Shown here one piece after another: positions 1,056-46,600 of a stretch of DNA of 64,000 nucleotides. The first letter of the stretch is position 1; each line of letters opens with the position of its first letter. Where the stretch lies: assembly GCA_040954595.2 (NCBI GenBank), contig CM082577.2:15693903-15757902 (forward strand), given 5' to 3'. The position numbers were made by a program, and so were the translations under genes. The stretch is from Balanoglossus misakiensis. Its lineage: Eukaryota > Animalia > Hemichordata. The notes under the pieces are model-generated. The model made no database searches. It saw only the letters and a list, made by a program, of their open reading frames with translations, and was not told the origin of the DNA.

Positions 1056-1119
1056 GAACGGTAACAGTCCCTCTAATGTTATTGATTCTTTAATAGGCCA
1101 CGCCAATGAAACTGAGATT

Positions 1120-5971: not shown

Positions 5972-5987
5972 TATTCATAGTCTCTTT

Positions 5988-19781: not shown

Positions 19782-19952
19782 TGTTGTGATTGCCGATGTC
19801 TCACCTGAGTGCGTCTAATCTACGGTTTCTAAAGGTCTTTTGGGAGGTCAGTCAAAGGCATGCTGCTCAATCTGAAGCATAGCAGAAAGAGAACGAACTA
19901 CTTCCGCCCAGGGGTGGGTAGGGTCAGTGACGTCATGGGCAGATTCACAACA
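19782..19952 (-). repeat. 3' LTR (171 bp)
   Basis: Identical to 38025-38195; preceded on the minus strand by PPT GGTGGATGAAGAG (19953-19965). Confidence 0.95.
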
Positions 19953-20149
19953 CTCTTCATCACCACATTTTGAAGGGCTTCGTCTTCTTCCCCCAAAACA
20001 CCGGGGGATAACACAACATTGAACACAACAATAACAAAAATAGAATGTCCAGCTGGGCTTTACTGGGTATGCCCCACTGGTCGGCCTGTTTGTTTCTTTT
20101 CTGGTGCCTCTTCCAACAGCTGTTGGAGGGCTTCCTCCTGTTGGTTTCT

Positions 20150-21418
20150 TTATCTTTTTGGGGTGAAGCCCGACCGCCACGTTCCACCCCGGCTCCCTAA
20201 GCAGGAAGTGGTGACACCTTCGCTTCGGTGAGCCTGGGCTCTCATGCGGTCCGAGTGGAAGTGGGTATCTATAGCCTGGGATAGTCCCCTGGCTGGTGAC
20301 GCCGCACTGGGTCGTCTCCCTTCTGGGCTTCCGGCGCTTGCTTGGGACTGTGGTCGTGGTGCCGCTGGGGCTTCCACTGCTGATTTCTTTCCAGATGGGG
20401 GCCCTTCCACTGTCCCCGAGAGGTCAGGTGGCCTCTCTGGGCTTGCTTTCTCGGGTGGCCTCCCCTGCTCATCCTGTGGCGGCCTTTTCTCTACCCTCTC
20501 CACCGATGCCGACTCCACTCGAGGGCGGGATCCCGCAGATTTCCAGCGCCTGCTCGAACGGCTTCTCTTCCTCCTGCTGCACCTGATGGTGGCTGTCGAG
20601 GACGCAGTGCGAGTCGGGTTTGGTAGATGTCTCGCTGGCCTTACGATCAGTCGTCTGGGCAATGTAACTTTTGCCACTTTCCCTTTCGTCCCTTGCCGAC
20701 CATATGTCATGTGTACACTTTCCCCGTCAAACCACAACTGATTTCTTCGCATATCTAGAATCACTCTCCTTGTCCGCATAAAGTCTGCCCCTAGCAACAT
20801 GTCATCATCTATCGGTGCTACATACACATCCTCTGTGAATTTGGTCCTTCCCAACTTCAGGCGCAAAGGCCCTACTTTATGGGCTTTCATTTCCATTTCA
20901 CGCCCTGCAGTTTGCATGATGGTGGTTTTGAGTACTGGGGGGCGGTTCCCAAGACGGCTATAGAGACGGTCTGAAATGATGGTGACTTCTGCTGCCGTGT
21001 CTACTACTGCCTGTACTTTAATCCCTTCAACTAAAATGGGCACACTGTACATATACCCTGACACTAATTGACATAAAGTTATGGGCTGGGTGTCATCACC
21101 GCTGGGGGATTCATTCGCTGTGGATTCATCAGTGTCCGAATTCGGGGAATCATACTCCTGTTCGTCCAAAGAATCCCCTGACGAGTTGTACTGTTCGTCG
21201 GTTCGTGCATCCCTAGGGTGTAGATAGAACCCGTGCCTTCGCAATATATTGTCAGTGTGGGTATCTAAAGTGGCCTGACACACTGACCCCTCTTCTCGGA
21301 TTTTGGCACAACCCTTGGTGTCAGTGCGTGTTGTCACCCTGTCAATTCCATTTCCTCCCTCCTTCACTTTGGGATCATCTCTTCCGAGTATTGGGCCCTT
21401 TGGTGGCTCCTGGGTCAA
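20150..21418 (-). pseudogene. Truncated pol: retroviral-type aspartic protease only, no RT/RH/IN
   Basis: VQAVVDTAAEVTII and DMLLGADFM motifs, then a low-complexity tail. Confidence 0.85.
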
Positions 21419-23701
21419 ACTGGTCTGACCCTTTCCCGCTGCTCAGCGAATGTTACCCGTTTCTCCCCGGAATCTGAGGTTACTCTTTCCCTTCCCTTGG
21501 GGCATTCCCTACGGAAGTGTCCAGATTCCCCACAGTTAAAGCATTCCCGTCCCCTAGGGGAGGGTGACCGAGACCGGCCTGCCTCGCGTGGGGATAGGGC
21601 AACCACTGTCTTTCTCAAACTCTCTAAAGCTCCGGCCACTTCAGTCATTTGTTCTCTAAGGGTATTTATCCCGCGACTTGGACTCGGGTTACGTGGGGTT
21701 CGAAACCTCTCCCGCGAGCCTGTTCCGCCGTCGGTGGGTGATAAATCGCGATCTCTGGGGGGTCGCTCCCAAGTGGCTGATCGCACGCGTATGGACTCGC
21801 CGTCGCTATCTGTCTCAGATGTTACTCGTTTTACTTCCCGACGCGAGGTTCGGCGGCCGAAGATTTCGCGATTGTTATATTGGAACCAACGTATTTGGTC
21901 TATGGCCTCTTCCATGGAGGATGCGCGTTGGTTAGCAACGTAAAGCCCTGCCTCGCGATCGGAGCATCGCTGACAAAACCTCATTATTGCCTGACGGTCC
22001 ATAGCGTGTTCCGTCAGATCGGGGAAAGCGTTTGTCGCGAGGGACAGGATTCGATCAGCCCATTTTTCGAGTGACTCCCCCTCTTTCTGATGGGACTGCT
22101 GAAATCTAATCTGCGCGGTCTCTGGCAGTTCTCGGCGCCCAAAACGCTTGTCTAGCTTACTGACCAGCCGCTGGTAGCTGATATTTCGCTCGCGCCTCGC
22201 TCGAGCAGTGTCGAGTGAAATTCGCTGGCGTCGCCGTCTAAACAAAAGCACAAGCAACATCCGCGCGTTCGTAAGGGCTGGCTGGGAGCGGTGTGAACCC
22301 CATCAGATATGGTGGCGGTGGGGTAAAATACCTTGGGAAGTTGTCTGGTGGATACGGTGGAGACACCCCAACCTGGTTCCCTGGGTAACCCCTTTGCTCT
22401 GTTGTGTGAAAATTATCCCTGTCTCGGGGTCCCCTGCAGTACTCACTTGCTGTGGGAGGGTAACCCCAACTATCCAATTCTCGATGTTGGCCAATTTTCT
22501 CCCCTCCCCTGGGATATGGGGTTGTCTTGGGCCCTGTACTATTTCCCCTCCCATACTCCAGTGATGACTGATCACTTTTGCTAGCCCGCTCTGAAACTGG
22601 GATTTCGGGTGGCCCCTGGAATTTCCCCGTTTTGCGTGTATTTCTGCAGGTCGGTGTTTGCCGGTCCTCATCACTACTACTACTTAGAGAATAATGAACG
22701 CCCCAAAGACCCATAATGGACGAAAGCACACATTGTGCGTCATAATATACGAGGCGAAGCCGAGTATATTATGGAGCACAATGTGTGCTTGAGTCCATTA
22801 TGGGTCTTTGGGGCGTTCATTATTCTCATTATTTTATAGTTTTGTCAATGCCAGTGAATTTGCAGACTTCAAAAAGTATAGGTGCAAACAATTCAGACTC
22901 GGACATCGAGAACAGAGCAATGGCGTACGCGTAAACAAAAGGTCACCTGATCGTGGTGTGTCAGTGTACTGTACATTTCTAGTATCATATTCAAACATCA
23001 GGAAATAAATAATGAAGGTTTATTTACGCATGTGAAAATTCATTTAAGGGTTCTGCTGAAATATATCTGAAATAGTTTCGATTTTGGTGTAATCTTGGGG
23101 AGGATTTGGGGAATATTTGAATTCGTTTGCGTTCTCAGGAAAGTTCACGTATACGGGCGCTCGGAAGGTTGCAATACATAAACAAACTCGCCCTCGATCG
23201 ACCCTCCGTACCGCGTAGACATCATGACACTTGCGGCATATTTTTTTTACGTATAGCTTCGTTGACATGACTGCTTGGTACATGGTACACGGTATGTATG
23301 GTGAACGAATGTCAAATCCAGCATCATGGAGAGGTTTGCTTTACGTGCGTGAGCGAGCCATGTTGACTGCGCGTGATTCAAGAGCAGACGACATGTACTG
23401 CAGCCGTAGGAAGAAAAAATAAACAAAACGCCAGTCGAGGACAGATTTGGAAATTAATAAATATCGCCGTATTTATTCTGTGTACGTTTGCATTTCTTTT
23501 TTAGCCCTTAAAATGTTCTCATTGTTTGAAATCCTCCGTTATTCAGTCGGAAATTGTACACGTCCACTGGTTCTTGGGCGCGTCGCGCGTCCATCGAATA
23601 ACACGATACATTATCAGTAATAATGTATAGCTATGACGTCACAAAATTCACTGGTATTGATAAAGCTATAATATAATGTACCTTATTTCATAGGACACCA
23701 T
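21415..23701 (-). pseudogene. gag: Gag of the nested LTR element, interrupted by a Crypton-like insert and frameshifted
   Basis: MVSYEI|SSSSDEDR rejoined across 22687-23681; LDKRFGRRELPETAQIRFQQSHQKEGESLEKWADRI; CFNCGESGHFRREC. Confidence 0.85.
22687..23681. mobile_element. Non-autonomous Crypton-like element (~1 kb)
   Basis: CTTA repeated at both junctions (22683-22686, 23682-23685), no TIR; ~140-bp terminal hairpin 22687-22828 centred on CGAGGCGAAGCCGAG; removing it restores gag. Confidence 0.65.
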
Positions 23702-25459: not shown

Positions 25460-25972
25460 TTAAGGGTCATGAGGTCACATGTGTTGATATAAACTGGACC
25501 CCTGGAGGTCCTCATGATGTGATCTATTAGCCCTTTAAACACACTAATTATTAACTATACACTCCCTCACACTCGAGACAACACGTAGGGTTTACTAAGT
25601 GAACCCTTTAAAGAATAATCTCAATCACACAAAAGCTCACTCCCACACAAAAAGAAACTTCTACGCGTACAGAGAAAAGTTCTACGCATGCGCCGACCGA
25701 TACAGAAGCCCAGGGGTGTGTGTTGCACTGACCTGCGTTAACAGATCCCGTGAGGAGTACGGTGCCCAGAGTGCTAACACATCCCTAAACTTCGTTGGCC
25801 TCTTTTGCACACAACAAAATAAGCACGACTTAGATCTTGCGATCGGTGACCGGCTACACCCCAAACACGTTTTTTGGAATGAGGACCCTAAACAAAGGAA
25901 AAAAGCCCTACTATACGTGCCAAGATGGCGGCCGAATTTCCGCCCACGCGGTAGTGGGGAAAAAACACAGAA

Positions 25973-26295
25973 CAGTCGCATCGATGACCCATATTAGGAG
26001 TTGCTTATTAGCATAAAAATTAACATATCGTTAATATGTAGAACGCGATCTGACCAATGACGTGCCCGGAAAGCCGCGCCTCTCACCCATTTCCCCGCCC
26101 TTTGTTATGAAAATCATGACCCTTTCTTTTCAAATGTAAATTTTGGGGTCAAATACGCTGTTTGGGGATATCCCGTCAATTAAAAACAAGAAAGTACGAG
26201 TCAAACTTGCTTCCGCGTCAATAAGAAAAATTTTCACCAGTGCTTTTGTGAAATAATAAATTTTGATTTCGGCGCCTACACTAGTTTTGACGACA
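25973..26295 (+). repeat. Left TIR of the Academ-like element
   Basis: Reverse complement of 37430-37744 with one diverged, indel-bearing segment. Confidence 0.93.
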
Positions 26296-29200
26296 TGGTA
26301 GTGCCCGAGCGCGAGCTAGCGGTAAAAGCTGACGGTGCTCGCGCGACAAGACGTAGCGACAGACGACAGCACAAATCAGAAACGATGGAGAAACAAACAG
26401 GACGTTACGTCCCAAAGTGCCGGTGTCCTCGACATGACGAATGGGGCAGTCTAGCGGCCCCGTTGTTCCAATACGTCAAATTGCCAGCCTATGCAAAAAA
26501 ATATATGGCTGGATTTCGAACACGGGGATCCGTCTGTGCAGACTGCCTCAAACAAATGGTAAGTCACTCTTTTGTAACTTTTTTGTTATTCTGAAGACGT
26601 TACCTGCACAAAAAAACTATCGGTCAATGCTAGTGCTATTGATTCACGTTTAATATACGTAGCGTATTTGTTTATTTTGCAGAATTTACCCATGAAGTTA
26701 TGCATTTTATAGAATTAATGCAGGAACATATCTCCTTGTGCAAAAAATAAGAATTTAACAAAAAAGTAGAAAAAGAAAAAACGGAACTGAGTAGTGTGAT
26801 CAAATGACAACCTTCTGTAAAACTATTTGAATAATAATTACCAGCATGAACTATTGTTGTGTTTATCAACAATTATTCAAGTTTTGAAAGATTTTGACAT
26901 AAAAGTTCACAAGGAACAGACAGGTGCTACAATAAACGCAGGTGTGGGATATACAATGTCAATAATTCAATAACCATAAAATAACTGTAGACACTAAATT
27001 ATTTTTCAGTCATTCTTGAAAAAAAAATCGCACGCTGCGACTTGGAGGACACCGGCAGCGATTCCTGAAGAACCAAAGGTAAATGAAAAACTGTGCTGCA
27101 TGTATTTTCAACTCTGACAAAATATTTGAGGACCACACAGGAACACAGTATACACATCTTTTTTATTGTGAAGAAATTATTCTGATTTATATGCCACACA
27201 AAGACAACAACAATGCACAGGTAGTTATGTGTGTATGTATGATACATATCTGATTAAAATGCATGGTAGTCAGGCCAGTATTTTATTTTGATGTAAGTCA
27301 TGTTTATTCTTATTGTGTGTTTTTTGTGCCTATTAATTTACTTGATTCATCATCAAAACACACAAAACAAGCAACTATGGAAAAAAAGACAAACCATAAG
27401 CATTAATTGTATTGTATTTTTATTTGTATTTACAGTCATGTTTAGCCACGGAGGCCGCTGGGTCATGCCAGCCTCATACAATGGAGGTGAACTGTTACGT
27501 AAGTTTCCTACGTATTGTAAACCCTTGAAATTTTGGTTAGCTTGCAATAGCCAAATTTAAGTAGATTTTTGTTTAAATTGTTCTTCTGGTCTAACTTACA
27601 TGAGTGAATAATAATTTAATGCTTTAAATCTTGCATTTATTTCAGGAGTGTGAACATCGACAAAATCAAAAGAAGACTGGTGAAGAGGAAGACAGAAGCA
27701 AGGTAATTGAAATGGTCTACAATCAATGCAAAGAAAATGCTGTCAGTTTGGGCCTTGAAATGATTAAAATGGTATTTCTGAATAAAATGTGTATTTTATT
27801 TTTATTTTATTTTCAGGACAAAGAGAAAATAAAAGAGTTGGAGGAAGAAATTGAGAGGCTGAAAAGGGAAATCGGGGGGAGGTTTAGCACAAGGGATAAG
27901 AGGGTGGAAGCAATTAGGGAAATTGGTAAATTGGTAAATTAGAAAATTTAGAAATTTACAGGCATGCAGATCTCCTCTGCCAAAACCAAGACAGGTATTC
28001 CGTTCAAAATTTATCAGACATAGATTTACATAATCTATTGTCAGAACGGAATCCTGTCTTGGTTTCCTTTCTTGAGGAGATCTGTATGCCAAATACTGGA
28101 ATCCCAAATAACACTCAATATCTTGCCCATGCCGTTGAACTTGTTTAAACTGCCAGGAATCCTAAGTTTGTGAGTAGTTTTATTTCTGCAATTCAAGTTA
28201 TTTTATTTAGTTTGACAAGAAGTCGCCTGGCAGTTGATCTCATGGGCCACGTAACAGCAGGCCCATGTTATGATGTTATTAACAATATTCATTTTAAAGG
28301 TAATTTTGATTTTCCAGATGCACCTGAGGGGTTAGTTGAATTTTCTTTTGATAATGAACAACGTCTTTCCAAAAATTACATTAACAGAAATGGTAATTCA
28401 GTTACTTTGGATATTTTTACTAACATTATTGCTTCTCAGCTGGACCCAGAATCATCACTGCAATATGATTCTGGGTTGAAGCCAAGTCAGTGGCAGAAGG
28501 TTTCAGAGACAGATGTTTCCAATACAGAGGACAGCAAGTATGATGAGTTTGATTCAGTTGTCAAAGAGTCCATTGCTTCTTATGTTGATAATTTAATTTT
28601 ATCTTCTGTAGCCACTATCAATGTAGATAATGCACCACAGACTGACTATATTGACACATACTTACAACAAAAACAACAGACTGACAGCATCGAGATTTGC
28701 CCTAAGTGCGGTTTCACCCACACGAAGGGCAAATCGAGAATTGCCAAGTGTCGAGGTTGTGGCATTTGGATGGGTAAGTATAGAAAGGAGATGAAAAGAG
28801 AGAAGACATCAACTTTTATTTCACCGGGCAGAAGACAAATTAAAAAGAAGAAGAAGGGAACCATCTTGCATGAGTGTGTTGGTGAAGTAAAAGTTGATCA
28901 CATGGGTAAGCAAACTACCAGAATTGTTAAAAAGCCCCCAAAACAAGCAAATAAAGCAAATATTTCTGTTATGTCCCCTATTTTTGTAAATCCTAATTGT
29001 GTTGAATCAGTGAAAGAAATTCTTAATCACATTGGTAAACTTGCAAAAATCAAACAATATTTTAATCATGGTGAGGGAAATGGAGATTATTGTACATATA
29101 GGGAATGGGTTATAATCAGGTGTGATGGCTTGCCATATGTAATTATCCGTAAAATTTTATCAGAAGATCATGAGGGAATATTTTCATGGGTTGTTTTAAG

Positions 29201-30377
29201 GACGGGTCTTTTACATGAAGAAATCAATGCAGTCAAATCATTTGTTTCTATGTATTGGGATGTAATTTACAGGGACTTTGCTCTATCTCAGGGATTCTCC
29301 TCAGGCAGATATCTAGAATTTGTGAAGAAGTGTTCTGATCATCACATTTCATTTGACCTTCTTTGCAAATTCAGAGATTGTCTGTGGAGCGAATTGCTAC
29401 ATGAATTTCATGTGAGTAATCCCACTGCTGATGCATCCACCAGTTTGTTTCTTGGCTGGTTGAATGCAGCAGCAGTGACAGACTCTCACATGAATTTCAT
29501 TTACAATATTCTTCTACAACATTTACATGGAATTTTCCTCTTTCGACAGGGCACGCGCTTCAATTCACCCACTTACCTACGGGCTGGGCGGCGTCTCCTT
29601 CGCACCTTGTGGCACGGTCGGAATCACCCCACTTACCAAATGATTGATGTCTATGACGAGACCGACCGTGCCCGGTATCCACCAGTACTTCTCCAAACTC
29701 TGGAGAAGTACGAGGCCATTTCAAGATCTGGCAGGCCTGATGCCCATCAAGGTGCGGACGCCGTCCTGGAGGAGTACAACAAAAACATCAAGGCCTGGGC
29801 TCCTCCAGTGCCCGATTCGGGTAAGTGGGTTGTCATCTGTAGCAGGCATGATGCCCTGGCCAGTCTGAGAAAGACAGTCTTCTCAGTCGTTAGCCTTGTA
29901 AACCCCGAGTCGTTGGAATGTAGCCGCCCAGGCTACTCTAACGACTTGACGGGTTTCAGGGGACGACTGAGACAGACATCTTATGTCAAGTATCAGGCTG
30001 GTCGGTCTTCTATTACCATCTCAGGAGATGCTATGGATAGACACATTGGCAATTATAACATCAATGCCGAAGAAAGAAGACGTGCCCTGGTAAGTATCAT
30101 CTGCCAAGGTAAGTATCCAGGCACTGGCAAAAAAAAAATACTATTCGTAACAGAAAACGAGAGAGAAGAAAGTGAAAGAGAAGAAAATAAAACAAATGCC
30201 ACACTTCGACACGAATGCAACGACATAATTCAGACACTACGGTTGACAGACAGAACATCACTGCATACACAACTACGACGGGCAACAAACAAAGCCAAGC
30301 TCCTGGAATTACTGCACAGTTTGCATGATTTACAAGGGGCTATTACAGAAGTGTTTGAATTTGAAATGCAACAGTAA
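26295..30377 (+). pseudogene. Large DDE transposase (Academ/DUF6589-like): small 5' exons plus long last exon 27817-30377; ORF 28170-30377 is the open part
   Basis: Candidate catalytic motifs FSFDNEQ, RCDGLPY, GLLHEEIN, GADAVLEEYNK; CPKC..CRGC zinc ribbon; exon 1 with CRCPRH..CADC ends ATG|GTAAGT at 26558; lesions are an 8-bp duplication at 27921-27936 and an in-frame TAA at 28146-28148. Confidence 0.7.
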
Positions 30378-30958
30378 AATTATCAGTGTATTTCAAATTC
30401 AAACACCCATTCCCCTTGTCTATCATATTAACTGTGCACAAAACACAGGAGTCTTGGCAAAAACAGACATACACAACACAGTACACAATTTATTAAACCA
30501 CACAAAACTCAATCAGACTTTGGTGTCAGGGAGGCTTTATTACACTACAGCATCTTAGCACTAACTATAAAACTACATCTACTGCCCCCATACTAAATGT
30601 ATACAAAAGGCCAAAGACAGGCAAAGATACAAACAAGTCATGAAAGATGACGTTTTACAAAGTCAAGCAACTACGGTACAAGGCAGAGGGATGGGAGGGT
30701 GGGTGAAAAGCAAATCGCTATGACAATGTGAAAGCAGCGTGTGTACGAGCAGTGCCGCCTGTAAAAGTACTGAGCCAAGACGCTGACAGTGGCCTTCCCT
30801 GATTGGCTGAAAGTTGGTCATGTGAGGGTCTCGGAGCTTGCGTGATTTAAACACCGCTAAAAGAGCTAGTACTTAAACCACACAAAACTCAATCAGACTT
30901 TGGTGTCAGGGAGGCTTTATTACACTACAGCATCTTAGCACTAACTATAAAACTACAT

Positions 30959-31960
30959 CTACTGCCCCAAACTCCAAAAGGATTTACTAGAGAGTAGAAC
31001 ATCCAGTAGAGGGTAAACATTTAGCAAACACTTGTAAAGAGTTAACCTTAAAGTCAATGGCAAGGTCAAATATTGCAAATAAGCATCGCTTTTCCAATCA
31101 CCCATGATTTTGATAACATCACTGGGAATACCACACTGCAGCGCCCAGGAAGCACCCCCTCTACGTAGGCTGTGGGCTGAATAAAGGTGTGGCTGCACAC
31201 CTGACTTGCTTAAGTGAAGGCGGAGCTTAGAGCTAAATTTCCCTGGTAACAAAGGGTGGAAAGAACCATCTATCTCAGGTAGCACAAATGCTGGGCCATC
31301 TTTGGGTGCTGCAAGGGAATAGGAAAATGCGCGCAGCACCGCTGTGACAGGGCACAGCGGATGTTTAGGGATAGCAGGAAGAGGGACTAACAACTTCCTA
31401 TCACGAGTCTGGATAGTCTTGGTCCAATGCAAGGTGATTGAGAGCCCCCAGTTGTGAACCACAAAAGAACTGCGAGAGAGATGTTTGGTGCTATCAAAAC
31501 CCTTGACAGAGGGGGCTAAAAAATTTGAACGTCTAAGGAGCCCAAAAAACCCTACCAAGCAGGCTGCCCAGAACACTGAATCAAACGCGCTACTGAAATC
31601 TAACTGGCGATAAACTGCAAGCAGTAAGGGCGGTGTGATGGGTAGCTTCCTGGCAACTGCCGTTCCCTTCTCCCTAGCGATTCCCTTTAAAACTAGTGAC
31701 AAAAACCAATTGTCTTGCAATGGGTTGGTAAACCCATACTCTAAATGCAAAATGCGAACAATGTTCAAATACTGTCTAACAGATGAAAACTTAAGTCTAC
31801 GAGCAAGAAATGCAGCATATCTGCAAACCATTTCTGCAGAGGCTGGAACAGGTGGATAACCCATTAAAATACAAAATTCTAAATAAGACTTCCAGTGGGT
31901 ACTGTATGTACGCTTTGTATTGGTGGCAAATGCACTGGATCTGTATCTGGTAACTTCCAA
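30959..31960 (-). CDS. Ngaro tyrosine recombinase
   Basis: GLLRRSN (R), WTKT (K), HSLRRGGA (HxxR), GDWKSDAY (W, Y); overlaps the RT ORF end. Confidence 0.95.
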   Translation of the reverse strand: MEVTRYRSSAFATNTKRTYSTHWKSYLEFCILMGYPPVPASAEMVCRYAAFLARRLKFSSVRQYLNIVRILHLEYGFTNPLQDNWFLSLVLKGIAREKGTAVARKLPITPPLLLAVYRQLDFSSAFDSVFWAACLVGFFGLLRRSNFLAPSVKGFDSTKHLSRSSFVVHNWGLSITLHWTKTIQTRDRKLLVPLPAIPKHPLCPVTAVLRAFSYSLAAPKDGPAFVLPEIDGSFHPLLPGKFSSKLRLHLSKSGVQPHLYSAHSLRRGGASWALQCGIPSDVIKIMGDWKSDAYLQYLTLPLTLRLTLYKCLLNVYPLLDVLLSSKSFWSLGQ

Positions 31961-33636
31961 GTCAAGCTGTGCTTCCAGCTGCTGGACTTCTGGATCTGTG
32001 GGATAAGGGCCAGCAAAGCCATTTTAGACATATGAGCAGGTAATGAATTGTAAGTACAGATAGGGTGATAAACACCCCCTGGATCAAACAGTGAATGCAA
32101 ACGTAACAGCTGACCCGGCTCATGTAGTCTAGAAATCGCATCTGGAATATTGTTCAGTTTGCCAGGAACATACACTGCTTGCACAGAGAAATTGAAAACA
32201 GCAGATAACCAAAACAGTGAACGCAGGCTATCCATAATTACAGCATGTTTTGAAATTCCTTTGTTTATTATATGCATGGCTGTAATATTGTCAGTATGAA
32301 GTATCACCTTGTGATTAGCCCAGTAAGGGGCCCACCTGAGAGCAGCTAATAAGAGAACCAAGGTCTCCTTGTAATTAATATGCAAATTAGCAGCTTTAGG
32401 CCACTCACACCATGGAAAGTAAAGCCAGTCATTTTTAAACCAAGCACCAGCAGCTTTACCAGATGCATCTGTATGGACATCAGTAATCGGTGCACGATTT
32501 AGAAACCTGACACTACCATTAAACTGTGGTAAGAAAGCAATCCACCAGTCTAAATCTGCAAAAAAGTCACTACACAATAAAATTTTGTGTGTGGGTTTGT
32601 TAAGCTTGCCTATGCAATCTATTATTCTCCGGAGGAAAGTTCTACCTCCATAAATAACTTGACAGGCCCAATTTAGCTTCCCAGCAAGGGACTGCAGCTG
32701 GCGGCTTGATGCACGTTTTTTGTTGCGAAACGAGAGCAGCAGGCGGAAGAATTCATGCAATTTAGCAGGCGGCAAAGACAGTGTAAGATTCACACTGTCA
32801 ATAAGGACTCCCAGAAAAACCAAACGTTGGGTAGGGCCCTCCACTTTGTGCCATGCAATGGCAAAACCCAATTTGCGGAGAAGTTTAATGAGGATATTCA
32901 ATGCTTTTTGACATTCCTCATATGTGTCAGCAACAATTAAGAAATCATCTAAATATACTACAACACTATCTATACCTTGACGAGCAAGCATTCTGCGGAC
33001 AGCTTGAGTTATGCGGTGGAAAATCATGGGAGCTCTTTTTGCCCCAAAAGGTAACCTTGTATCATACATATATGTCGGCCCGTTAGAGTCAGAGAAAGCC
33101 CATTTAAGACCAGTAAACTCGTAATTTGACGGGTGGATGCGCACTGACCTATATGCAGACTTGAGGTCTACCTTGGCCATGAAAGAGCCGGGTTTAATAA
33201 GATTGATGGCATCTTGTAAGGTTTGATACGAGAAAGAAGGTGCATCAGCAAAATCATTGATAGTCGACCCTGGGGAACGACTACAATCGTGTATGAGGCG
33301 AACACCATTAGACTGTGGCTTAGGTATTGCTCCTATAGCACTAACAATGTGAGGCTTAGCAGGGGTAACAACATAACGCCCTTCCCTAATTTCATCCATA
33401 ATTTGGGATTCCACTGTACAACAATTCCCTTCAGCAGTAGCAGACCGATAATTATCCACCTCCACACGAGACCCAACAGAATTACAATCTAAAATATGAA
33501 AGCCGTTGTTTATACCATCAAGGAGAAAATCCTTGTCAGGGTCATCAGGAGCAATCTCAGAGACCCAAGCATCGTAATTTAAACTATGAGGGTTGGGTGG
33601 AGGGGGAGGCAGACGGTCTACTTTTGCTCGTTTTTT
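31879..33636 (-). CDS. Ngaro reverse transcriptase / RNase H
   Basis: RLIHDCS, KVDLKSAY, LPFG, YLDDFL, HTDASG, HTDN, PDAISR; frame open upstream to an A AAA AAC heptamer overlapping the ORF1 end. Confidence 0.93.
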   Translation of the reverse strand, partial: KKRAKVDRLPPPPPNPHSLNYDAWVSEIAPDDPDKDFLLDGINNGFHILDCNSVGSRVEVDNYRSATAEGNCCTVESQIMDEIREGRYVVTPAKPHIVSAIGAIPKPQSNGVRLIHDCSRSPGSTINDFADAPSFSYQTLQDAINLIKPGSFMAKVDLKSAYRSVRIHPSNYEFTGLKWAFSDSNGPTYMYDTRLPFGAKRAPMIFHRITQAVRRMLARQGIDSVVVYLDDFLIVADTYEECQKALNILIKLLRKLGFAIAWHKVEGPTQRLVFLGVLIDSVNLTLSLPPAKLHEFFRLLLSFRNKKRASSRQLQSLAGKLNWACQVIYGGRTFLRRIIDCIGKLNKPTHKILLCSDFFADLDWWIAFLPQFNGSVRFLNRAPITDVHTDASGKAAGAWFKNDWLYFPWCEWPKAANLHINYKETLVLLLAALRWAPYWANHKVILHTDNITAMHIINKGISKHAVIMDSLRSLFWLSAVFNFSVQAVYVPGKLNNIPDAISRLHEPGQLLRLHSLFDPGGVYHPICTYNSLPAHMSKMALLALIPQIQKSSSWKHSLTWKLPDTDPVHLPPIQSVHTVPTGSLI

Positions 33637-34859
33637 GCCTCGTTTGCTACCCTTGATTCATCTTTAAGATGAGATGACTTTGGGTGCTGCTTGCGACACT
33701 CCAAACAGATGTGAGCATATGTGCACCTATTACCAAATGTACAATTACCTTTGTTGAAACCAATGCATATTGGTCTACCTGTTTTTGCATCTAATGGTGC
33801 AGGCAAAACACCTTTTCCCTTGCTAATATACCCACTAGGGCTAGGGGCACCCTTGCCAGCAACTTTGTTTGCTATAAATTTCTCCCTCAAGTGTACCGAT
33901 GACAAATGTTGGGACTCCGTACCCCAAGGGAAATGATAGGCTGCCTGCAACATCCGATACTCCCTGTCATACACTAGGACAGACGCCCACTCATATCTAT
34001 CAGCCAACTGTGATACTTTCACAGTGTACGCTAGGTATTGTTTGATTTGAATAATATCAAACGAATGATTAATGATCAGTTCGTATAAAATGCGCGCGTT
34101 CGCCGCTGTCCATTGTTGTGGTGTGACAGAGTTCAGCTTAGGTTTGGCGGGACCGGATTCCAATATCAGCTTACTGCCGCTGTCGCCGACCGACAGGACC
34201 TGTTGTTCAACTTTCGTTGTGAAGGAACCGGGGACAAAGTCAACAATATCCAAGTGTTTCTGACCTTTAGTCTTGGGTTTTAGGTAAACCAGTGGGTCTA
34301 AATCCATACGATCAGGTGTAGCGGACTTTGGCGGCACGTCCGCGATGGGATTTGCAGCTGCTGGTTCTGGAGCCAACGCCTTCAGCAAGGTGTCCAGGTT
34401 GAAGCTTGCGGGAGACGTTTCTTCGCCTTTCAATGTAGATACGGGAGGAGCACTGCGGTCAGAAGAGGTCACGTCTTTACGACAGTCCGCGCCACTGGAG
34501 AAACTTGACACATTCCCTGCAACAGTCGGGGCCGCCATCTTGGAAGTCATGTTTTTGGCGGGACTGGCTTGACCCTGGCCGGGTCCCATCAGCGCAATTA
34601 TTGCCGCTTCTAACTGTCTGAGCTGGCCCAATGGACTGATTTTCATACTGACCATGTCTTCAGGCTTGATCAGTTTGACAGCATCCAATGAAACGAAGCC
34701 GTGCATACCAAGAACCGACAGTGTGTCCAAAGAAATACCGTATTTTTCTGCCCACAGTTGCATCTCCAAACAGGGTGTCATGGACGATAACAGGCTTGCT
34801 GTGTCGACGGTATGGTCTACATGACCAGTCGCAGCCGAGTCGACGCTGAGCTTATCCAT
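33618..34859 (-). CDS. Ngaro ORF1 (Gag-like, CCCH zinc finger)
   Basis: First ATG MDKLSV at 34859; WASVLVYDREYRMLQA and CIGFNKGNCTFGNRCTYAHICLEC motifs. Confidence 0.85.
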   Translation of the reverse strand: MDKLSVDSAATGHVDHTVDTASLLSSMTPCLEMQLWAEKYGISLDTLSVLGMHGFVSLDAVKLIKPEDMVSMKISPLGQLRQLEAAIIALMGPGQGQASPAKNMTSKMAAPTVAGNVSSFSSGADCRKDVTSSDRSAPPVSTLKGEETSPASFNLDTLLKALAPEPAAANPIADVPPKSATPDRMDLDPLVYLKPKTKGQKHLDIVDFVPGSFTTKVEQQVLSVGDSGSKLILESGPAKPKLNSVTPQQWTAANARILYELIINHSFDIIQIKQYLAYTVKVSQLADRYEWASVLVYDREYRMLQAAYHFPWGTESQHLSSVHLREKFIANKVAGKGAPSPSGYISKGKGVLPAPLDAKTGRPICIGFNKGNCTFGNRCTYAHICLECRKQHPKSSHLKDESRVANEAKNEQK

Positions 34860-36193
34860 CACTACCACTACGTCTGTCGGTGACAGATAGTTAAACCGAA
34901 ACGTAACTGTAAAAGCCGACTTAACAGCGTACGCTCGATATTGCTTGAAAAGCAAATCGCTATGACAATGTGAAAGCAGCGTGTGTACGAGCAGTGCCGC
35001 CTGTAAAAGTACTGAGCCAAGACGCTGACAGTGGCCTTCCCTGATTGGCTGAAAGTTGGTCATGTGAGGGTCTCGGAGCTTGCGTGATTTAAACACCGCT
35101 CAAAGAGCTAGTACATTACAGTGGCTACAGATTTTATTGATTTATATATTTATAATCTTTTTTTGGTCTTATTTCACAGTTTATCTATTAGTTTACCATG
35201 TATCTCTATTCTTTTTTTTTTACTTTCCATGATTTAATCTCTTTTTTGTGTGTATCTTTTTTTTCAATTATGTTTAGTCCTCTTGAGGAGCAGATGTTAC
35301 TGAAAATCACTGCCACTGTACTTGCTGACCAGCTGAGGAGCTTAATGTTAATATTATTTTTATTATTGATTTTCTTTTTCTAATCAACAGAATTTATATA
35401 TTTTTTTAATTATATTTTTATTGTAAATTTATTTGAAGGTTTCTAAATAGGAATGAAACAAATTAATTACTTTTGATATTATAACCCAACATTAAAACAT
35501 TATTTCCAGTCAATCATGTGATAAAAATTCAAATTATGATCATTTCCGAATTTTATTTATTTTAAAATCATGACACAATTTTTTTTTCCTATTTAGAAAC
35601 CTATTCTACTAACACTTCAGGTGCAATGGTTTACTTTTATTTTATGCTTTAATTACATTTTTAATATCTTTTAGGTTTATTTATTCTTTTACGATTAATT
35701 TTCATTTGTGGGCAAAATATTGAGTGTCATTTACATTTTTTTAATAAACTTGGTTTCATATATTATTTAAATACAGCAATCATTTCTTTCGCCAAATTGG
35801 ATTCCAGTATTATTTTCTTTTATCATTATTTATAAATTATGGGAATTGATTTGTTAATGGTTATGGGGTTGGATTGGGTGGGTTCGGGGTTGATAAAGTT
35901 AAGAGAGATTTTTGTGCATTGTTATAATAATCATGAATTGAATGTAAATTTATATGAATTTTTTAGTTCTTTGTAATAAAAATCTGTTAATCTCAAATAG
36001 TGGTCAGTTGTGAGGAGTCGTTTATTTCAATTTCATGCCATCTTATTTTAGCTTTTTGACATTTGGAAGTTTACAAAATTATGCATTTATACAATTAAAA
36101 CAAATTTTCAAAAATACAGTCATTTCAATAAAACAAATTACGAAAGTGGAAACATCATGCAATGTAATTTTAATTTCTTGACAGTAGAAACAT

Positions 36194-36333: not shown

Positions 36334-36862
36334 AAGTATGAGTTAAGACAATGAACTATACTCGGTGACTGAAGATATAACAGTATAACATCAAGAACAC
36401 CATGTGTACATGACAGATGTCCGGAATATCATTTGTAAACCTACCACAATATAAAGCTCTTCGACCGTGTAGGGGAATTCAATTTGTAAACAGTAAACAT
36501 CACCGGCGGTTCAAGTTGCAGAATTTCCATTTGATTTCACCGTTTTACTGTCAGGTTATCTGGCCGATTCCCCCGATCCTTCTAGATCAATAAGTAATTC
36601 ATACACAAATACTAATTGTTCCCTACCTTGATAAAAAAAAAAAACGTTTAAAAAATCCCGACTCCATCATGACGAAGTACATGTGTCCAAGAGCATAAGC
36701 CAAAGGTCATTTGAGGTTAATTAATGCTGATGACCTCAAACCACAAACGCGAAACCCGTTCGTATGCGATAACAAACAGTTGAAAGAACAACAAAATAAA
36801 TTTAAAAAATAATAAAATAATTACATCAAAACATCAAGTGATTTTTTTTTCAAACGGTATAT

Positions 36863-36903
36863 GTCTTTCTGGAGGATGTGTGGCCCTGAAAAGGGCCGTT
36901 TGG
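36863..36903 (-). terminator. Replication-dependent histone mRNA 3' stem-loop plus histone downstream element
   Basis: Minus strand CCAAAC GGCCCT TTTC AGGGCC ACACA TCCTC CAGAAAGAC; stem-loop 36882-36897, 53 nt after the HIRAN stop. Confidence 0.85.
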
Positions 36904-36950
36904 TTTGGTTGCGGTGTGTACCGCCAGGCGTAGACGGTGTCACCAGTAAT

Positions 36951-37342
36951 TCAGGCGATCACCGTCACATTGAAGCCCTTGCTCTCCACGAACGCCTTCA
37001 CTCTTTGTAGGTCGCCTTCTTTCAGGTGAAATCCAACATTACACACCTGAACGACGCCGCATCGCCGAGAATGAAAGAAGGGACTTTCTTTTGGTTTGAG
37101 GAAATATACGGAATTTGGAGATAGAGCCGCATCGATCACTCTTGCGAGCACTTGAGCGGCATCCCTCTTCAAATGTCCGTATATTCGCGGGCGCCTTCTT
37201 CATTGTCGACGATTGCGACGGCGTTCTGGTCGTATGGGTAGGATTTCTCCCGCAGAAGGCGATACCCAGCACCGACAGTAAGTGCACCTTTATAGCGGTG
37301 CATCCCCACTGCCAGTACTTGGTGTACGATAAGTGAAGGCAT
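36951..37342 (-). pseudogene. Intronless stand-alone HIRAN-domain protein (~130 aa) with a single frameshift near 37187
   Basis: VLAVGMHRY..YRLLREKSYPYDQNAVAIV../RIYGHLKRDAAQVLARVID fits the HIRAN pattern (L.rE..N.yD.nAv.v..Gyl.r..a..la); joins ORFs 37169-37462 and 36951-37172. Confidence 0.75.
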
Positions 37343-37429: not shown

Positions 37430-37744
37430 TGTCGTCAAAACTAGTGTAGGCGCCGAAATCAAAATTTATTATTTCACAAAAGCACTGGTGAAAATTTTTC
37501 TTATTGACGCGGAAGCAAGTTTGACTCGTACTTTTTTGTTTTTAATTGACGGGATATCCCCAAACAGCGTATTTGACCCCAAAATTTACATTTGAAAAAA
37601 AAGGTCGTGATTTTCATATTAAACAAAGAGCGGGAAAAGACGTATTTCCGGGCACGTCATTGGTCAGATCGCGTTCTACATATTAACGATATGTTAATTT
37701 TTATGCTAATAAGCAACTCCTAATATGGGTCATCGATGCGACTG
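37430..37744 (-). repeat. Right TIR of the Academ-like element
   Basis: Ends ...GGGTCATCGATGCGACTG followed by CAGAA. Confidence 0.93.
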
Positions 37745-38010
37745 CAGAAAATTGACTCAAACTACCTCCGAAACCCCGGTACCTACCCAGTACCGTCCCT
37801 AAACTTCGCTAAAAAATCCCTGCGGTCCCCGAGAGTTTGCCCAGTGTCTTCTGGCCCCGACAATCCCCGATATCCCGTTTTTCCTATGCCCAGAAAAACC
37901 CCACGTCGCACCCGGACGCAATCGCTGAATTCCGGCCACACAGAAACACCACTCTCCCTCCCCCGCGTATCAAAAAAAAAAGCGTTTCCCCGCACTAGGC
38001 TCGAACACAG

Positions 38011-39332: not shown

Positions 39333-40306
39333 CGAAACATAATTTAAAGGACTTTAATTTAAACGATCCTACGAGCCAAGTTCGCACCTGGCCGATTTCT
39401 CCCACGGACCGACTCCCCTAGATCTTGTATTCGATTTGATCGACAGCGTCATTCAAAGGTCTACAATACGTCGGCGAAATTGTCCGGATTTGTCTGCTCC
39501 GGCCGTAGTAGATACAATCTGTAAACATTGTACTGTGGATAGATAGCCATCTCATCTGTTTGTTGGATTTGTGTACTCCTGTAACGTCCTCATGTACGGG
39601 AATTGTGGGATAGCTTCATTTCCGCCGCGAAGAAAAAAATATTTTGCTTTCTGAAAATATATTTTGTCATGCATGTAAAAGAAATGCGCACGCCGAAACG
39701 CCCCCATAAGTTGTGTTACTAGAAATCAGATTAAATTTACCCCTGTAAAATAAAATTTTCACCCGGGAAAAATAATTTGTTACTTAAGAAATTTTTTTTT
39801 TTTCTTAAGCAATAAAAACATTTTGTTTTAAAAAGTTAAATAATTCCATTGAATACAGATAATTTTATCTCGATTGTTATTTAAATGTTAACTAAAATTT
39901 AACTCCGTAAAATATTCTCACCTGGGAAAAATAATTTGTTATTTTACAAAATAAACTTTTTCTTTAAAAATTAAAACATTTCTTTTTGAAAAAAAAAATC
40001 CACGTAGTATGAATAAGTTTATCTCAAGTTGTTACTGTTTATTTTGGACAAAATAAATCTTTATTAAAATATTATTCTTGGAAACAATAAAATTTGCTTT
40101 CGACAAATAAAATTTGGTTCTCTAAAATAAAATTTGTGATAAGTAAAATTAAAGTTTTACTGTCAAAATCAAAAAGTTTTGTCCATCAATATTAGTTGCC
40201 GCCACCAAAATTAAAGTTTACTTCTTGGGAAAAGATATTGTCTATCTAAAATTAAAGTTTAACTTTCAAAATAATAAATTAAAATTGACGTGTAGGGGCC
40301 ACGATA
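39333..40306 (-). repeat. Right long TIR of the IS3EU-like element
   Basis: e.g. AGTTCGCACCTGGCCGATTTCTCCCACGGACCGACTCCCCTAGATC is the reverse complement of ~13910-13956. Confidence 0.9.
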
Positions 40307-41360: not shown

Positions 41361-43637
41361 TTAATCATAATGACATCGGTGCGTGATAGTTTTTGATACA
41401 TGTGTAAGTGTAGCAGCAGCATAAGGTGATGTTATGCCTTTACCTTTACGTGCCATTTTCATGAGTTCTTTTTTCTCGTCATCATCTTTTTCGTCAAGCC
41501 AGGTGAATGTTTGGTTCAGCTTATTTATCAGTACAGTGGAATGATGCTTGAGTGTTGCATTTGGTTTCTGGTGACAGTCATAGTCATAGTGCCCAAAGTC
41601 ATTCTCACTGACCAGATTCTCTTTCCTCGTGTGCTCTGTGTTTTCTCGATCTTCTGCTGTTAGCTGCGTGTATTTTCCACCTGGCAAGTAATCCCCTAGT
41701 TGTTTGACGGTAATGTATTTGCTGCTGGCTGACAACACTTCCATGAATTCAGCTGTCATGATATTCATGTTGGTGGTGTGGGTGTTATCAAAAACTGAGT
41801 TGAACACTTCATCTCTCTCAGTTGCATATCTCTCTCCGAAGGTTGGCTCAATGTCAGGTGACAGAGGGCAGGTACCATCTTCACACCATTTGCTGAATGT
41901 GTCATACATGTTGGTGAACGGGACATGCAAATCCAGTACATGCATGTTACCATTTATGAGTTTCCACAAAGGGCAAGTGATGTGACTGTAGAGGATTCCA
42001 AGGGCTCTCAGTCCAGCAAGCAGTGGTGGTGATTGAATATCCGCAGCGATGGATTCCAGCAACTTATTGGACTGACGATAGCCTCCACGAAGAAAGCTGA
42101 GGATATCATGTCTGTGATGGTATACACATGCTGCTCCAAGGAACATATTATTAAACCTGTTCCCTCTGTAGTTTGGTATATATGACTTCTTACCATGTAG
42201 GTTGAGGTAAGCCAACCAATCAGCTCTACATCCGGACTTCTGATCACCACGGGGACCACATGCTGAGCATGCAGTTCGTACAATACTAAGAACAGCTGAT
42301 TCTGAACAATTCCAGAAACGAAACTCTGGTAGCGCATCTCTTCCAAGCTTACCGTTCACCATTTCTAAGGTCTTCTGGTATTCTTGCAGTGCCTTTTCTG
42401 CTTGGGAACTAAGACCCAGTAGAAAATGAGCATTGCAGTAGAAGTAATTGAGATTGATTACTTTGTCTTGAGAAGCATCTTTCAGTTGATCCTTTCTCCA
42501 TTCACTCAGTAATTCATGGTACTTTCTCATAACACTTGATCGATCACTAACAACATTGCTCATCTTTGAGATAATAGTATTCAGTGCCTCTTTGCTGTTG
42601 GCATCTAAATAGCTTGAGAGTTCTTCCAGGAGCGATTGTGTAGCCTGCAGCACACTCTCCGAGTTCTCCTCAGCTATTGGCAGGAACCCACAACTTAGTG
42701 TTTTCTTTGTATTCAAAGTAACTTCAAAGTCGAGGACCTTTTTACCATCTCTGCTAGTGCCGTCAGAATGCAGATCCCATTTAGATGATGATAATAGCTT
42801 GTCTGCAATATGTCGTTTCCCCAAAAAGTGACCTTCATCAGCCATGTAGCTAGCTGCACTTTTCTGTGGTAGATCTTCCTTTTTGAGATTCACATTAAAT
42901 ACATTTCTTGTCACAATTTCAATTACATCTGCCACTTTGTTTGATGCAACTTGTTTGGCTTGTAACTCCATCACAGTTTGCCTCACATTATCAGTGAAAG
43001 CGGCTTGCGGGTGATCACCAACTCTTGTTTTAACGTTAACAGGATCACTTTCAAGAAGTTTCTTTTCTTGTTCTCTTATTTCATCCTGTAGCTGTGCATT
43101 TTTCTGTTTCTCATGTTTTAGACTGGTTTGAAGTTCTTGTATTTTTTTCTTCTCTTTCAGTGACTGCCTGTGTACATTTGAAAGCCCTGTTTGCAGATGC
43201 TTCTTTTGCTTTCTCAGCTCAACAATTTCTTTTTTCAAGACGTTCATCTGCTTGGTAGAATTATCATGTATGCGTTTTATTTCTAGTTTTGCATGTTTCA
43301 TCCTCCGTCTTATCTTTTCTACTTTGGACTTCTGTGCCTGGTGCATTACATGAAATTTAACTTCCTGTCTCTTTAATCTTCTGTAATAGTTTGAATATTT
43401 TATCCTCTTAATTTGTCTTTCTTGCTCTTTACATTTTCTTTTCAGGCTGCTGTGTAGTTTGGCTGAGACACATTCCTTTTGCTGTTTGTAATAACTCTGG
43501 TTTTGTCCATCTATTACTTCATACAGTGCATCTTTCTCATTCTTTAGTTCATTCACTTCATCTTTCAATTCAGCATTGCATCTTCTCAAATTTCTCATCT
43601 CACCTTCAGTGTATCTTTGGTTGCATTTATGGTTATT
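41361..43637 (-). pseudogene. hAT-like DDE transposase with N-terminal coiled coil; 5' end cut by the Helentron cluster, 3' end probably truncated
   Basis: LHSDGTS, VVSDRS, YCNAH (CxxH), GNRFN, NLVSENDFG motifs; frame stays open upstream of ATG 43598 up to the cluster junction. Confidence 0.65.
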
Positions 43638-46600
43638 GGGGGCACAAGCGCCCTCAGGCGGCTTGTGCCCCCATTGGTATTGTTGGAATATTTAGGGCCC
43701 AAGCGCAAGCAAGCCCTTGGGCCCTATTGGTTTCGTTGGAATTTTTAGGGCCCAAGCGCACGCAAGCGCTTGGGCCCTATTGGTATCGTTGGAATTTTTC
43801 TTTCTTGCTGTCTTTCTTTCTTTCTTTCTTTATTCTTGTGTCAATTCTTCGGCCAACTAAATCTCTGAAACTACTGCAGGTACACTGCTCAAACTTGCTA
43901 CAGTGGTCAAGGTCTATGAGTAGATGTGCAGTGACTTGTGAATACTTAATTAGTCACGTGACCTGGCGGCCATATTGGATTTTCTGAAAAAATTCAAATC
44001 TCAGATCTCAGAAACTACAAGTCAGATCGACTTCAAATTTGGCATGCAGGTAGACTACCTTCTACCCATCATTTTTGTAATTGGAAATTTTGCTACAGTG
44101 TTGCAGTTTTTTTGCTACAATTTTTTTTCTGAAATCTGGCTTAAATTTCAAAAATCTTCTTCTCCAGAACCGGTGATAACCGAGACACGGGGTTTGGGGT
44201 ATGTGGTCACCTAACTGATGTCTATCAAGTTTGCGAAGATCATTGTGATTGGTCGAAGATTATGGCGGCCATATTGGATTTTAGAAAAACCATAGTTAAA
44301 CTCCAAAAATCTTCTTCTCCAGAACGGGCGATGACTGAGTCGCAAGATTCGGGGAGTATGGTCACTACACTGATGTCTATCAAGTTTGCAAAGAACATTG
44401 TGATTGGTCGAAGATTATGGCGGCCATATTGGATTTTGTAAAAAGCAGTGAAAAATTGAAATTCCTTCTTCTAGTCTAAAAATTGATAGCATACAAATTC
44501 TTTTTATGGATATCAATCGTCATGTGACTAAAATATGCTACAATTTTTTGGCGATTTTTCACATGACCTTTGACCTACTTATCACGCGTTATTATTTCTG
44601 CATATCTAATTCCAGGCTAACCTATAGGGCTAGACGTTTGGTTTTTGATGAATGTGGATTAGTGTGTGATCAAAATATTTTGCTACTTTTCATGACCCCT
44701 TTTGACCTCTGGTGACCTCATTAATTATGTGCATAGCTAATTACAGGCGAACCAATAGAGCTAGAGGTTTGGTTTTTGTTGGACATGGACCAGTATGGGA
44801 TCAAAATTTTTTGCCCAAATGTTGGGTGACCTCTGGTGACCTTTGATCTACTTTCGCATATCTCAGCATCCAGAGCAGATACAGCCATGGCATTTGGTAG
44901 GATGGGACCAAAATGTAAAGTCACATTTTTGGGTCACCTGTAACACCTGCTGACCTCATTAAATATGCACATACCTAATTACAGGCGAACCAATAGAGCT
45001 AGACTTTTGGTTTTTGTTGGTCATGGACCAGTATGGGTAAAAAAAATTGCCCAAATTCTGGGTGACCTCAGGTGACCTTTGACCTACTTCACCCTATTTC
45101 AGCAGCAAAAATACACACATCCTTGTTATGTCATGAGATAATACATCCGATAGAAAATTCAGTTTCATCTCATTCATACTGTGCATATATAATTCAAGAT
45201 CAGCGCTTGGGCCCGACAATGCTGCTCGCAGCTTTAATTAGGGCCCAAGCGCAAGCCAGCGCTTGGGCCCTATTGGTTTCGTTGGGGTTTTTCTGTCTTT
45301 CCTTCTTTAGGGCCCAAGCGCATACCAGCGCTTGGGCCCTATTGGTTTCGTTGGGGTTTTTAGGGCCCAAGCGCAAGCCAGCGCTTGGGCCCTATTGGTT
45401 TCGTTGGGGTTTTTTAGGGCCCAAGCGCATACCAGCGCTTGGGCCCTATTGGTTTCGTTGGGGTTTTTCTTTCTTCTTTCTTTCTTTCTTTATTCTTGTG
45501 TCAATTCTTTGTCGCTCTAGATCTCAGACACCGCTGCAGGTACACTTCTGAAACTTGCTACAGTGGTCAAGGTCAATGAGTAGTCGTGCATTGAACCTGT
45601 GAATTTTTAATTAGTCACGTGACCTGGCGGCCATATTGGATTTTCTGAAAAAATGCAAATCTCAGATCTCAGAAACTACAAGTCAGATCGACTTCAAATT
45701 TGGTGTGCAGGTAGTCTACCTTCTACCCATCATTTTTGTAATTGGATATTTTGCTGTAAATGTTGCAGTTTTTTTGCTACAATTTTTTTTTCTGAAATCT
45801 GGCTTAAATTTCAAAAATCTTCTTCTCCAGAACCGGTGATAACTGAGTCACGCGGTTTGGGGTATGTGGTCACCTAACTGATGTCTATCAAGTTTGCGAA
45901 GATCATTGTGATTGGTCGAAGATTATGGCGGCCATATTGGATTTTCGAAAAACCATAGTAAAACTTCAAAAATCTTCTTCTCAAGAACGAGCGATAACCG
46001 AGTCACAAGATTTTGTGTGTGTGGTCATTAAACAGGTGTCTATCAAATTTGCGAAGGGGAATGTGATTGGTCGAAGATTATGGCGGCCATATTGGATTTT
46101 GTGAAAAACGATTAAAAAGTAAAAATTCCTTTTCTAGCCTAAAAATTGATAGCACAGAAATTCTTTTTATGGATATGAATCATCATATGACAAGAATAAG
46201 CTATAAATATTTTGGTAATTTTGGCAATGACCTTTGACCTACTTTTGACGCATCATTTTTCTGCATATCTAATTCCAGGCTTACCAATAGGGCTATAAGT
46301 TTGGTTTTTGATGTATGTGGATTTGTATGTGATCAAAAAATGTTGCTACTTTTCATGACCCCTTTGACCTCTGGTGACCTCATTAAATATGCGCATACCT
46401 AATTAATGATGAACCAATAGACCTAGAGGTTTTGTTTTTGTTATACATGGACCAGTATGGGGTCAAAATATTTTGCCCAAATGTTGGGTGACCTCGGGTG
46501 ACCTTTGACCTACTTTTGCATATCTCGACATCCACAGCAGATACAACCTTGGCGTTTGGAGGTATGGGGCCATAATGAAAAGCCAAAGTTTTGGGTCACC

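Follow-up and report, generated by a model that had tools for sequence, protein, structure and literature searches.

A gene for a standalone HIRAN-domain protein, carried by a DNA transposon in the window (the whole 64-kb stretch of DNA that was analysed), is followed by a histone-type stem-loop and a purine-rich element of the kind that directs the 3' processing of histone mRNAs. Judged from the sequence, this arrangement is a real one that probably functions in this lineage, and from it we infer a possible timing of HIRAN expression to S phase. The features concerned are the following:

25968..25972: left target-site duplication CAGAA, 5 bp
25973..26295, plus strand: left terminal inverted repeat (TIR), starting with CAG, likely an inward promoter
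26295..30377, plus strand: DUF6589-like transposase gene, main open frame 28149-30377
30493..35114, minus strand: tyrosine-recombinase retrotransposon, inserted here, whose split direct repeats measure 169 bp (99%) and 96 bp (100%)
36871-36864, minus strand: purine-rich HDE-like element CAGAAAGA, 10 nt 3' of the stem
36877..36881, minus strand: ACACA directly 3' of the stem; the mRNA is predicted to end at about 36877
36897-36882, minus strand: histone-type stem-loop GGCCCT-TTTC-AGGGCC with 6 Watson-Crick pairs, a UUUC loop and an A/C-rich 5' flank
36951..37342, minus strand: standalone HIRAN gene of 130 codons, ATG at 37342, coding part without intron, frameshift near 37185
37430..37744, minus strand: right TIR, likely the promoter of the HIRAN gene
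37745..37749: right target-site duplication CAGAA

The 3' ends of metazoan replication-dependent histone mRNAs are formed with the participation of SLBP, the U7 snRNP and CPSF73 (PMC5435866, PMC4604434, PMC13525598, bioRxiv 10.64898/2026.10.14.759114). One of these sources describes histone mRNAs as the only known non-polyadenylated cellular mRNAs and reports that SLBP in HeLa cells bound histone mRNAs only (PMC4604434). In the window, the spacing between the HIRAN gene's stop codon (TGA, 36953-36951) and the stem is 53 nt, which lies inside the range of 25-60 nt quoted for histone genes (bioRxiv 10.64898/2026.10.14.759114). The hairpin shows the consensus 6-bp stem and 4-nt loop, a G-C pair at position 2, a U at loop position 3 and A/C-rich flanks, and it is present in both the MFE and the centroid folds. 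The Rfam Histone3 model (RF00032) matched positions 36858-36902 with 33.7 bits and an E-value of 1.1e-6, just below the gathering score of 34; a scan of the window at the gathering level returned 0 matches, because the Histone3 score falls 0.3 bit short of this threshold. When the stem-loop pattern was searched in the window with at most one mismatch, the hairpin was the sole match (shuffle mean 0.07), and the chance expectation for the canonical 16-mer with all pairs perfect is about 1e-6 per 100 nt. CAGAAAGA contains 7 purines in 8 positions and begins 10 nt after the stem, while the best purine runs at control histone loci lie 9-17 nt after the stem. No histone coding sequence was detected in the window at E<=1 in tblastn searches with six histone queries. 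The stem-loop, the purine-rich element downstream and the absence of a histone gene nearby had all been proposed in an earlier note on this DNA, and each of these proposals is borne out by the present searches.

[quoted passage not shown] The gene as a whole also resembles histone genes in its short, uninterrupted coding sequence and in having no poly(A) signal nearby, the nearest poly(A) hexamer being located 777 nt downstream. The window gene has no YAG acceptor before its ATG. It differs from histone genes in that its product is a HIRAN protein, not a histone, and in that it lies in a transposon.

The N-terminal frame of the window HIRAN gene matched the Pfam HIRAN family (PF08797) with 21.7 bits (E 1.8e-4), which is below the cut-off of 24.7. 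P0001, an intact relative of 130 aa that is 68-70% identical to the window protein on each side of the frameshift near 37185, scored 36.2 bits (E 5e-9), which is above this cut-off, and it matches HLTF in the PDB by sequence. The best PDB fold matches of its structure model (pLDDT 95.4) are the HIRAN domains of HLTF (E 9e-7, TM 0.73); P0001 as modelled has the beta-barrel fold of the HLTF HIRAN domain. The identification of the product as HIRAN, which had been made from the letters of the sequence, is thereby confirmed on an intact relative, and the minus-strand, intronless reading frame of about 130 aa that had been described was recovered with its one frameshift. In HLTF, D94 reads the 3'-OH and Y72 and Y93 pinch the last bases (PMC5773155), and N90-N91 are required for function (PMC11237066). 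Across 116 family rows, the equivalent of D94 is D in 97%, that of N91 is N in 94%, that of Y72 is H in 92%, and that of Y93 is Y, H or F in 76%. The window copy is changed at pocket positions 16 and 35, where the H and N of the family are replaced by R and Y, and it has kept the D and the Y. Having lost the pocket N and H, this copy of HIRAN is decaying.

In a full profile-free search, 97 relatives were found at E<=0.001, most of them standalone proteins of 110-140 aa; named members of the family belong to Mytilus and Mactra. One protein, P0048, looks like a predicted fusion of HIRAN and a transposase. The transposon family is like HLTF and Rad5 HIRAN (PF08797) in its fold (TM 0.73) and in the equivalents of D94, N91 and the aromatic Y72 and Y93. 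Unlike HLTF and Rad5, the transposon HIRAN proteins are standalone, with 120-135 aa and without helicase or RING, and are carried by DNA transposons; they also have their own VGMHH motif and a C-terminal Q-x-C motif. Standalone HIRAN proteins from bacteria and phages are among the known HIRAN systems (PMC5773155, PMC11237066, PMC6511057). An isolated HIRAN domain has been reported to be dominant-negative on HLTF in vitro, blocking the HLTF-driven removal of Cas9 and end resection (PMC11237066), and inhibits the work of HLTF rather than doing it. HLTF is also reported to restrict HIV-1, for which the relevant section credits the HIRAN domain (PMC6511057).

Conservation of the hairpin was assessed by means of family proteins that have lost their stop codon and therefore read into their own 3' UTR, and 123 proteins were searched for a peptide that a canonical hairpin can encode. 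The only such peptide is located in P0004, at residues 139-144 just past the domain end; shuffles lead one to expect 0.24 such peptides anywhere. Residues 138-144 of P0004 fit the hairpin DNA of the window at 21 of 21 bases, a value reached by 0 of 2000 shuffles, and flanking 7-residue segments of P0004 away from the hairpin fit at 14-17 of 21 bases, which is the background. P0004 and the window protein share 51% identity. The inferred distance from stop to stem in P0004 is about 16 nt, as compared to 53 nt in the window, and so falls below the range of 25-60 nt. As judged by eye, the residues past the hairpin can encode a purine run like the one behind a histone H2B gene (locus L036). In a quick tree of rows of 105-180 aa, from which seven proteins that were long or unrelated, the last-fetched cluster members and three broken loci had been dropped, P0004 and the window protein are found at opposite ends of a set of six rows (support 98), and the path between them amounts to 0.75 changes per site. 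Neutral DNA of that age should therefore not survive letter for letter. Eight other read-through tails contain no stem-loop peptide; they carry little information, because most of them end too early or are unrelated fusions. From the P0004 translation alone, we infer that the hairpin would be common to the six-member subclade and kept by selection, and the simplest reading would be one gain of the hairpin at the base of the subclade, followed by selection on the hairpin alone. Searches for the close subfamily, including the DNA of the intact P0001, P0110 and P0111, confirmed 0 of 42 candidates in viral contigs and 0 of 14 in prokaryote genomes; none of 15 candidates for the broader family pattern was confirmed in viral contigs, in which the stem-loop patterns gave 0 sites.

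Distant relatives were sampled by a metagenome scan, which yielded 16 loci from 138 candidates, with identities of 31-42%. The scan motif was that of the distant family, [AV]VGMHH[YHW]G, which is not matched by the window subclade, and the scan was therefore unable to return close relatives. It should be noted that the 16 loci are not independent, since one element accounts for four of them and one assembly for five. The stem-loop was found in 0 of the 16 loci, either with Histone3 at E<=1 or with a relaxed pattern, two loci ending before the 3' region. Conservation of the stem-loop in homologs, a point that the earlier note put up for checking, is supported indirectly for P0004, at 51% identity, and is absent at the distant loci. 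An AG acceptor-like site, preceded by a pyrimidine-rich tract, was observed 0-3 nt before the ATG in 13 of the 16 loci, and a poly(A) hexamer within 250 nt in 12 of the 14 loci with sequence there, both counts referring to AT-rich DNA and having no shuffle control. The genes of the distant relatives thus look spliced and polyadenylated, which would be the opposite design to that of the window gene.

Ten of the 16 distant loci are transposon-linked, six being located beside pogo-type frames and four in a small TIR element, which argues that standalone HIRAN is a recurrent transposon cargo. At the six pogo-type loci (L007, L009, L010, L011, L014 and L015), HIRAN adjoins HTH_psq or DDE_1 frames, one of which falls slightly short of the cut-off (60 of 110 frames scanned). 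At L007, PHD is also present beside HIRAN, and at five of the six loci both ORFs have, by eye, an acceptor-like site before the ATG, as if they were alternatively spliced from one leader. The coordinates of the small element are:

L004:312-1711 and L005:679-2026, with partial copies in L006 and L012: small TIR element of 1.35-1.4 kb with 27-30-bp TIRs, TAG...CTA

No gene besides HIRAN and no evident target duplication were found in this element at the four loci. As the stem-loop is not family-wide (0 of 16), HIRAN-carrying transposons work without the hairpin, and it is likely, on the evidence of these sequences, that one HIRAN subclade switched to histone-type 3' ends.

The transposon that carries the window gene is a cut-and-paste DNA element of 11.8 kb with TIRs of about 320 bp and a 5-bp target duplication, CAGAA. 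The TIRs are 93% alike, their outer 100 bp are identical and the ends read CAG...CTG; the claim that a TIR element surrounds the HIRAN gene is thus upheld. The left TIR contains what we take to be CCAAT-, CRE- and ETS-like words. The right TIR contains one presumably E2F-like word, TTTCCCGC at about 37630-37637, for which there is no chance control and which has no counterpart in the left TIR; nothing here is argued from this word. The transposase gene would include upstream exons starting from the ATG at 26295, and an in-frame stop (28146-28148) directly precedes its main frame. Among 7991 candidates scored, its sole match was an uncharacterised Ptychodera flava protein (P0002) with 65% identity over 27930-29528, which makes a marine invertebrate the likely host; the Ptychodera flava transposase XP_070559926.1 is 63-65% identical. 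Its score against DUF6589 was 15.7 bits, below the cut-off of 27, its Atlas look-alikes (0.85-0.86) are DUF6589 clusters that serve as leads only, and its structure model had a pLDDT of 33, which is too low to use. The inserted retrotransposon at 30493..35114 has open gag (a CCCH gag-like ORF), RT/RNase H and recombinase frames, with a weak phage-integrase match, and is presumably of the Ngaro/DIRS type. Its split repeats are 99-100% identical, and this insertion nested in the DNA transposon looks young. The window transposon is a dead copy. The earlier note had attributed one frameshift to it; this frameshift is present, but the damage is greater than was claimed and extends to two pocket residues, the transposase stop and the retrotransposon in the middle of the element.

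Several further features were observed elsewhere in the window. Second, larger inverted repeats at 13266-14002 and 39333-40185, which are 81-97% alike, bracket the whole element and possibly belong to an outer transposon; they also enclose a Gypsy-like gag/protease region (19848-22768). A Gypsy-type pol frame of 1428 aa is located at 982-5268 on the plus strand, a 66-bp tandem array with inverted segments at 5853-11336, a 776-aa frame with a weak Peptidase_M43 match at 41361-43691 on the minus strand, and a long complex repeat array at 43640-64000. An Rfam match to MIR1223 at 30333-30418 (34.5 bits, cut-off 77) corresponds to an AT-rich palindrome and was not accepted.

The element had been called Academ-like. 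The Academ superfamily was reportedly defined by Kapitonov and Jurka in 2010, and AcademH and AcademX are said to have been described by Kojima in 2020. Academ elements have YAG-type TIR ends and duplicate 3-4 bp of target, or 9-10 bp in AcademH; a RecQ-like helicase is a feature of AcademH and an XPG nuclease is a feature of AcademX. DUF6589 is taken here as the link to the Academ transposase. The window element shares with Academ the long TIRs and the YAG ends (CAG...CTG); as a possible further likeness, its DUF6589-like transposase has, by eye, D..D..GxxH..E-like motifs. It differs from Academ, with its 3-4 or 9-10 bp, in duplicating 5 bp, as read from one insertion, and it has the HIRAN gene in place of the Academ helicase or XPG gene, neither a RecQ-like helicase nor an XPG nuclease having a Pfam match in the nine element frames scanned. 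Since a duplication of 5 bp and the lack of a helicase or XPG gene disagree with these definitions, the element was not filed as Academ. Academ is the nearest label, weakly supported and with membership unproven. The superfamily was compared by way of PMC5751038, PMC4455052, PMC10799480 and PMC10045372.

Histone-type stem-loops behind other non-histone genes were encountered in 596 Gb of prokaryote genome records, in which the stem-loop pattern matched 56 loci representing 41 distinct sites. Of these sites, 21 follow histone genes on contaminating animal contigs, 14 have no eukaryote-like gene, and 6 follow non-histone ORFs, which end 19-27 nt before the stem-loop (one MADF, one RING, one RING-like, two Cys-rich copies and one orphan). 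Among the loci L017-L072, at least 21 are ends of animal histone genes, located on contigs that contaminate prokaryote genome records. Five of these records were searched whole, which gave 21 Histone3 matches, and examination of 14 stretches revealed further non-histone ORFs with a canonical hairpin 19-30 nt after their end, among them two MADF genes and one tandem pair. The main examples are:

L073:9554 and 10052; L075:7503 and 8001 (minus strand): Polinton-like elements, each with two tandem non-histone ORFs that each have a stem-loop
L083, L084, L085: three genes with MADF domains, each stopping 19-25 nt short of a canonical stem-loop and followed downstream by a purine-rich element
L076, L077, L078, L079, L086: RING, RING-like, Cys-rich and orphan ORFs, 19-27 nt before stem-loops

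L073 and L075 encode a DNA polymerase B of the protein-primed type (DNA_pol_B_2), to which L073 adds the packaging ATPase Pox_A32, and the same word follows each of their stem-loops. MADF genes are typical partners of Harbinger transposons. At L086, the downstream word recurs behind histone genes of the same record set; at L077, a frame with a TnpB/Cas12f-like TNB domain is also present. On this sequence evidence, putative histone-type ends on non-histone genes are recurrent, often in mobile DNA. This recurrence makes a function of the arrangement in the window more probable, and the arrangement itself less unique.

Literature searches that covered mostly openly available papers brought up no account of a histone-type end on a transposon gene or of transposons that carry HIRAN; the HIRAN ORF may already be mentioned in a Repbase entry. 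A literature search with CAAGAAAGA returned primer noise only, and the words 'non-histone' and 'transpos' are absent from a 2026 survey of the pathway (bioRxiv 10.64898/2026.10.14.759114). The view that the arrangement was undescribed thus stands as far as this literature is concerned, but public contigs contain other non-histone genes with such ends.

The following course of events may be proposed for intact copies. The right TIR would drive a short unspliced HIRAN message, which SLBP and the U7 snRNP would cut 5 nt after the stem, the position at which histone pre-mRNAs are cleaved (bioRxiv 10.64898/2026.10.14.759114), so that it would end near 36877. It would not be polyadenylated and would probably accumulate in replicating or early-embryonic cells, or be stored for cleavage. 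As the pattern search of the window revealed no stem-loop at the transposase gene, only the HIRAN helper would be timed. The protein would bind 3'-OH DNA ends, which may be transposon ends, a donor break or nascent strands, and would most likely cap these ends and keep host HLTF and resection away during DNA replication. A capping or shielding role for the transpososome or the donor break is plausible because isolated HIRAN blocks HLTF in vitro. When an element is excised from one chromatid during replication, repair from the sister can restore it and raise the copy number. Tn7 and maize Ac are replication-coupled in a manner that resembles the proposal for the window transposon: Tn7 TnsE recognises 3' recessed ends at forks, and Ac gains copies by moving in S phase. 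Neither of them is known to rely on a HIRAN domain or on the processing of histone mRNAs. We consider it quite probable that the histone-type 3' end functions in intact copies, and we regard the whole chain, including the replication-linked timing, as evenly balanced between right and wrong.

A functional end need not imply timing. The hairpin might be a compact and precise terminator, export or stability signal, or serve storage in the oocyte, and might avoid long antisense read-through towards the transposase gene, any timing being incidental. Whatever in the sequence speaks for a functional end speaks for this explanation as well, which also fits the convergent orientation of the transposase and HIRAN genes, only the latter of which has the signal, and for the varied products of the non-histone genes with such ends (MADF, RING, Cys-rich orphans), which are not only replication-related. 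However, a poly(A) hexamer would be shorter and is evidently enough in the distant relatives, and the SLBP/U7 pathway is described as itself bringing S-phase-linked turnover (bioRxiv 10.64898/2026.10.14.759114, PMC4604434). We hold this explanation to be rather unlikely, though it is the strongest of the alternatives.

It is less likely still that part of a host histone 3' UTR was picked up on a single occasion, for instance during gap repair, and travels as a passenger behind a gene that is read through or silent. Both hairpin-bearing sequences, P0004 and the window gene, are broken copies, as such a passenger would allow, and the spacer after the window stem resembles, by eye, the sequence that P0004 can encode if one base is inserted. 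However, the window contains no histone coding remnant, and the hairpin is correctly placed after the stop codon, correctly oriented and correctly spaced. Moreover, it is in the hairpin only that P0004 matches, while half of the protein residues, and the UTR lengths, are different. That the hairpin is a chance match can be regarded as essentially refuted: 14 of the 41 pattern sites in the prokaryote records have no eukaryotic-looking gene and the Rfam score is below its cut-off, but these points are outweighed by the expectation of about 1e-6 per 100 nt, the Histone3 E-value of 1.1e-6 and the presence of the same word behind a second member of the family.

If a replication-timed HIRAN helper with a histone-type 3' end is indeed what these transposons encode, histone mRNAs would not be the sole non-polyadenylated mRNAs of animals, and the textbook rule on the stem-loop and U7 would be broken. 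Ordinary poly(A) RNA-seq would miss transcripts with such ends, and a cut-and-paste transposon would have a concrete route for coupling itself to replication. Only tentatively, and with somewhat less than even confidence, do we suggest that mobile elements of invertebrates have repeatedly linked accessory genes that do not encode histones to the SLBP/U7 pathway, and that here a HIRAN protein that antagonises HLTF and caps 3' ends may tie transposition to S phase or early cleavage at the post-transcriptional level. Standalone HIRAN can also be seen as a recurring accessory of transposons and, possibly, as a natural antagonist of HLTF.
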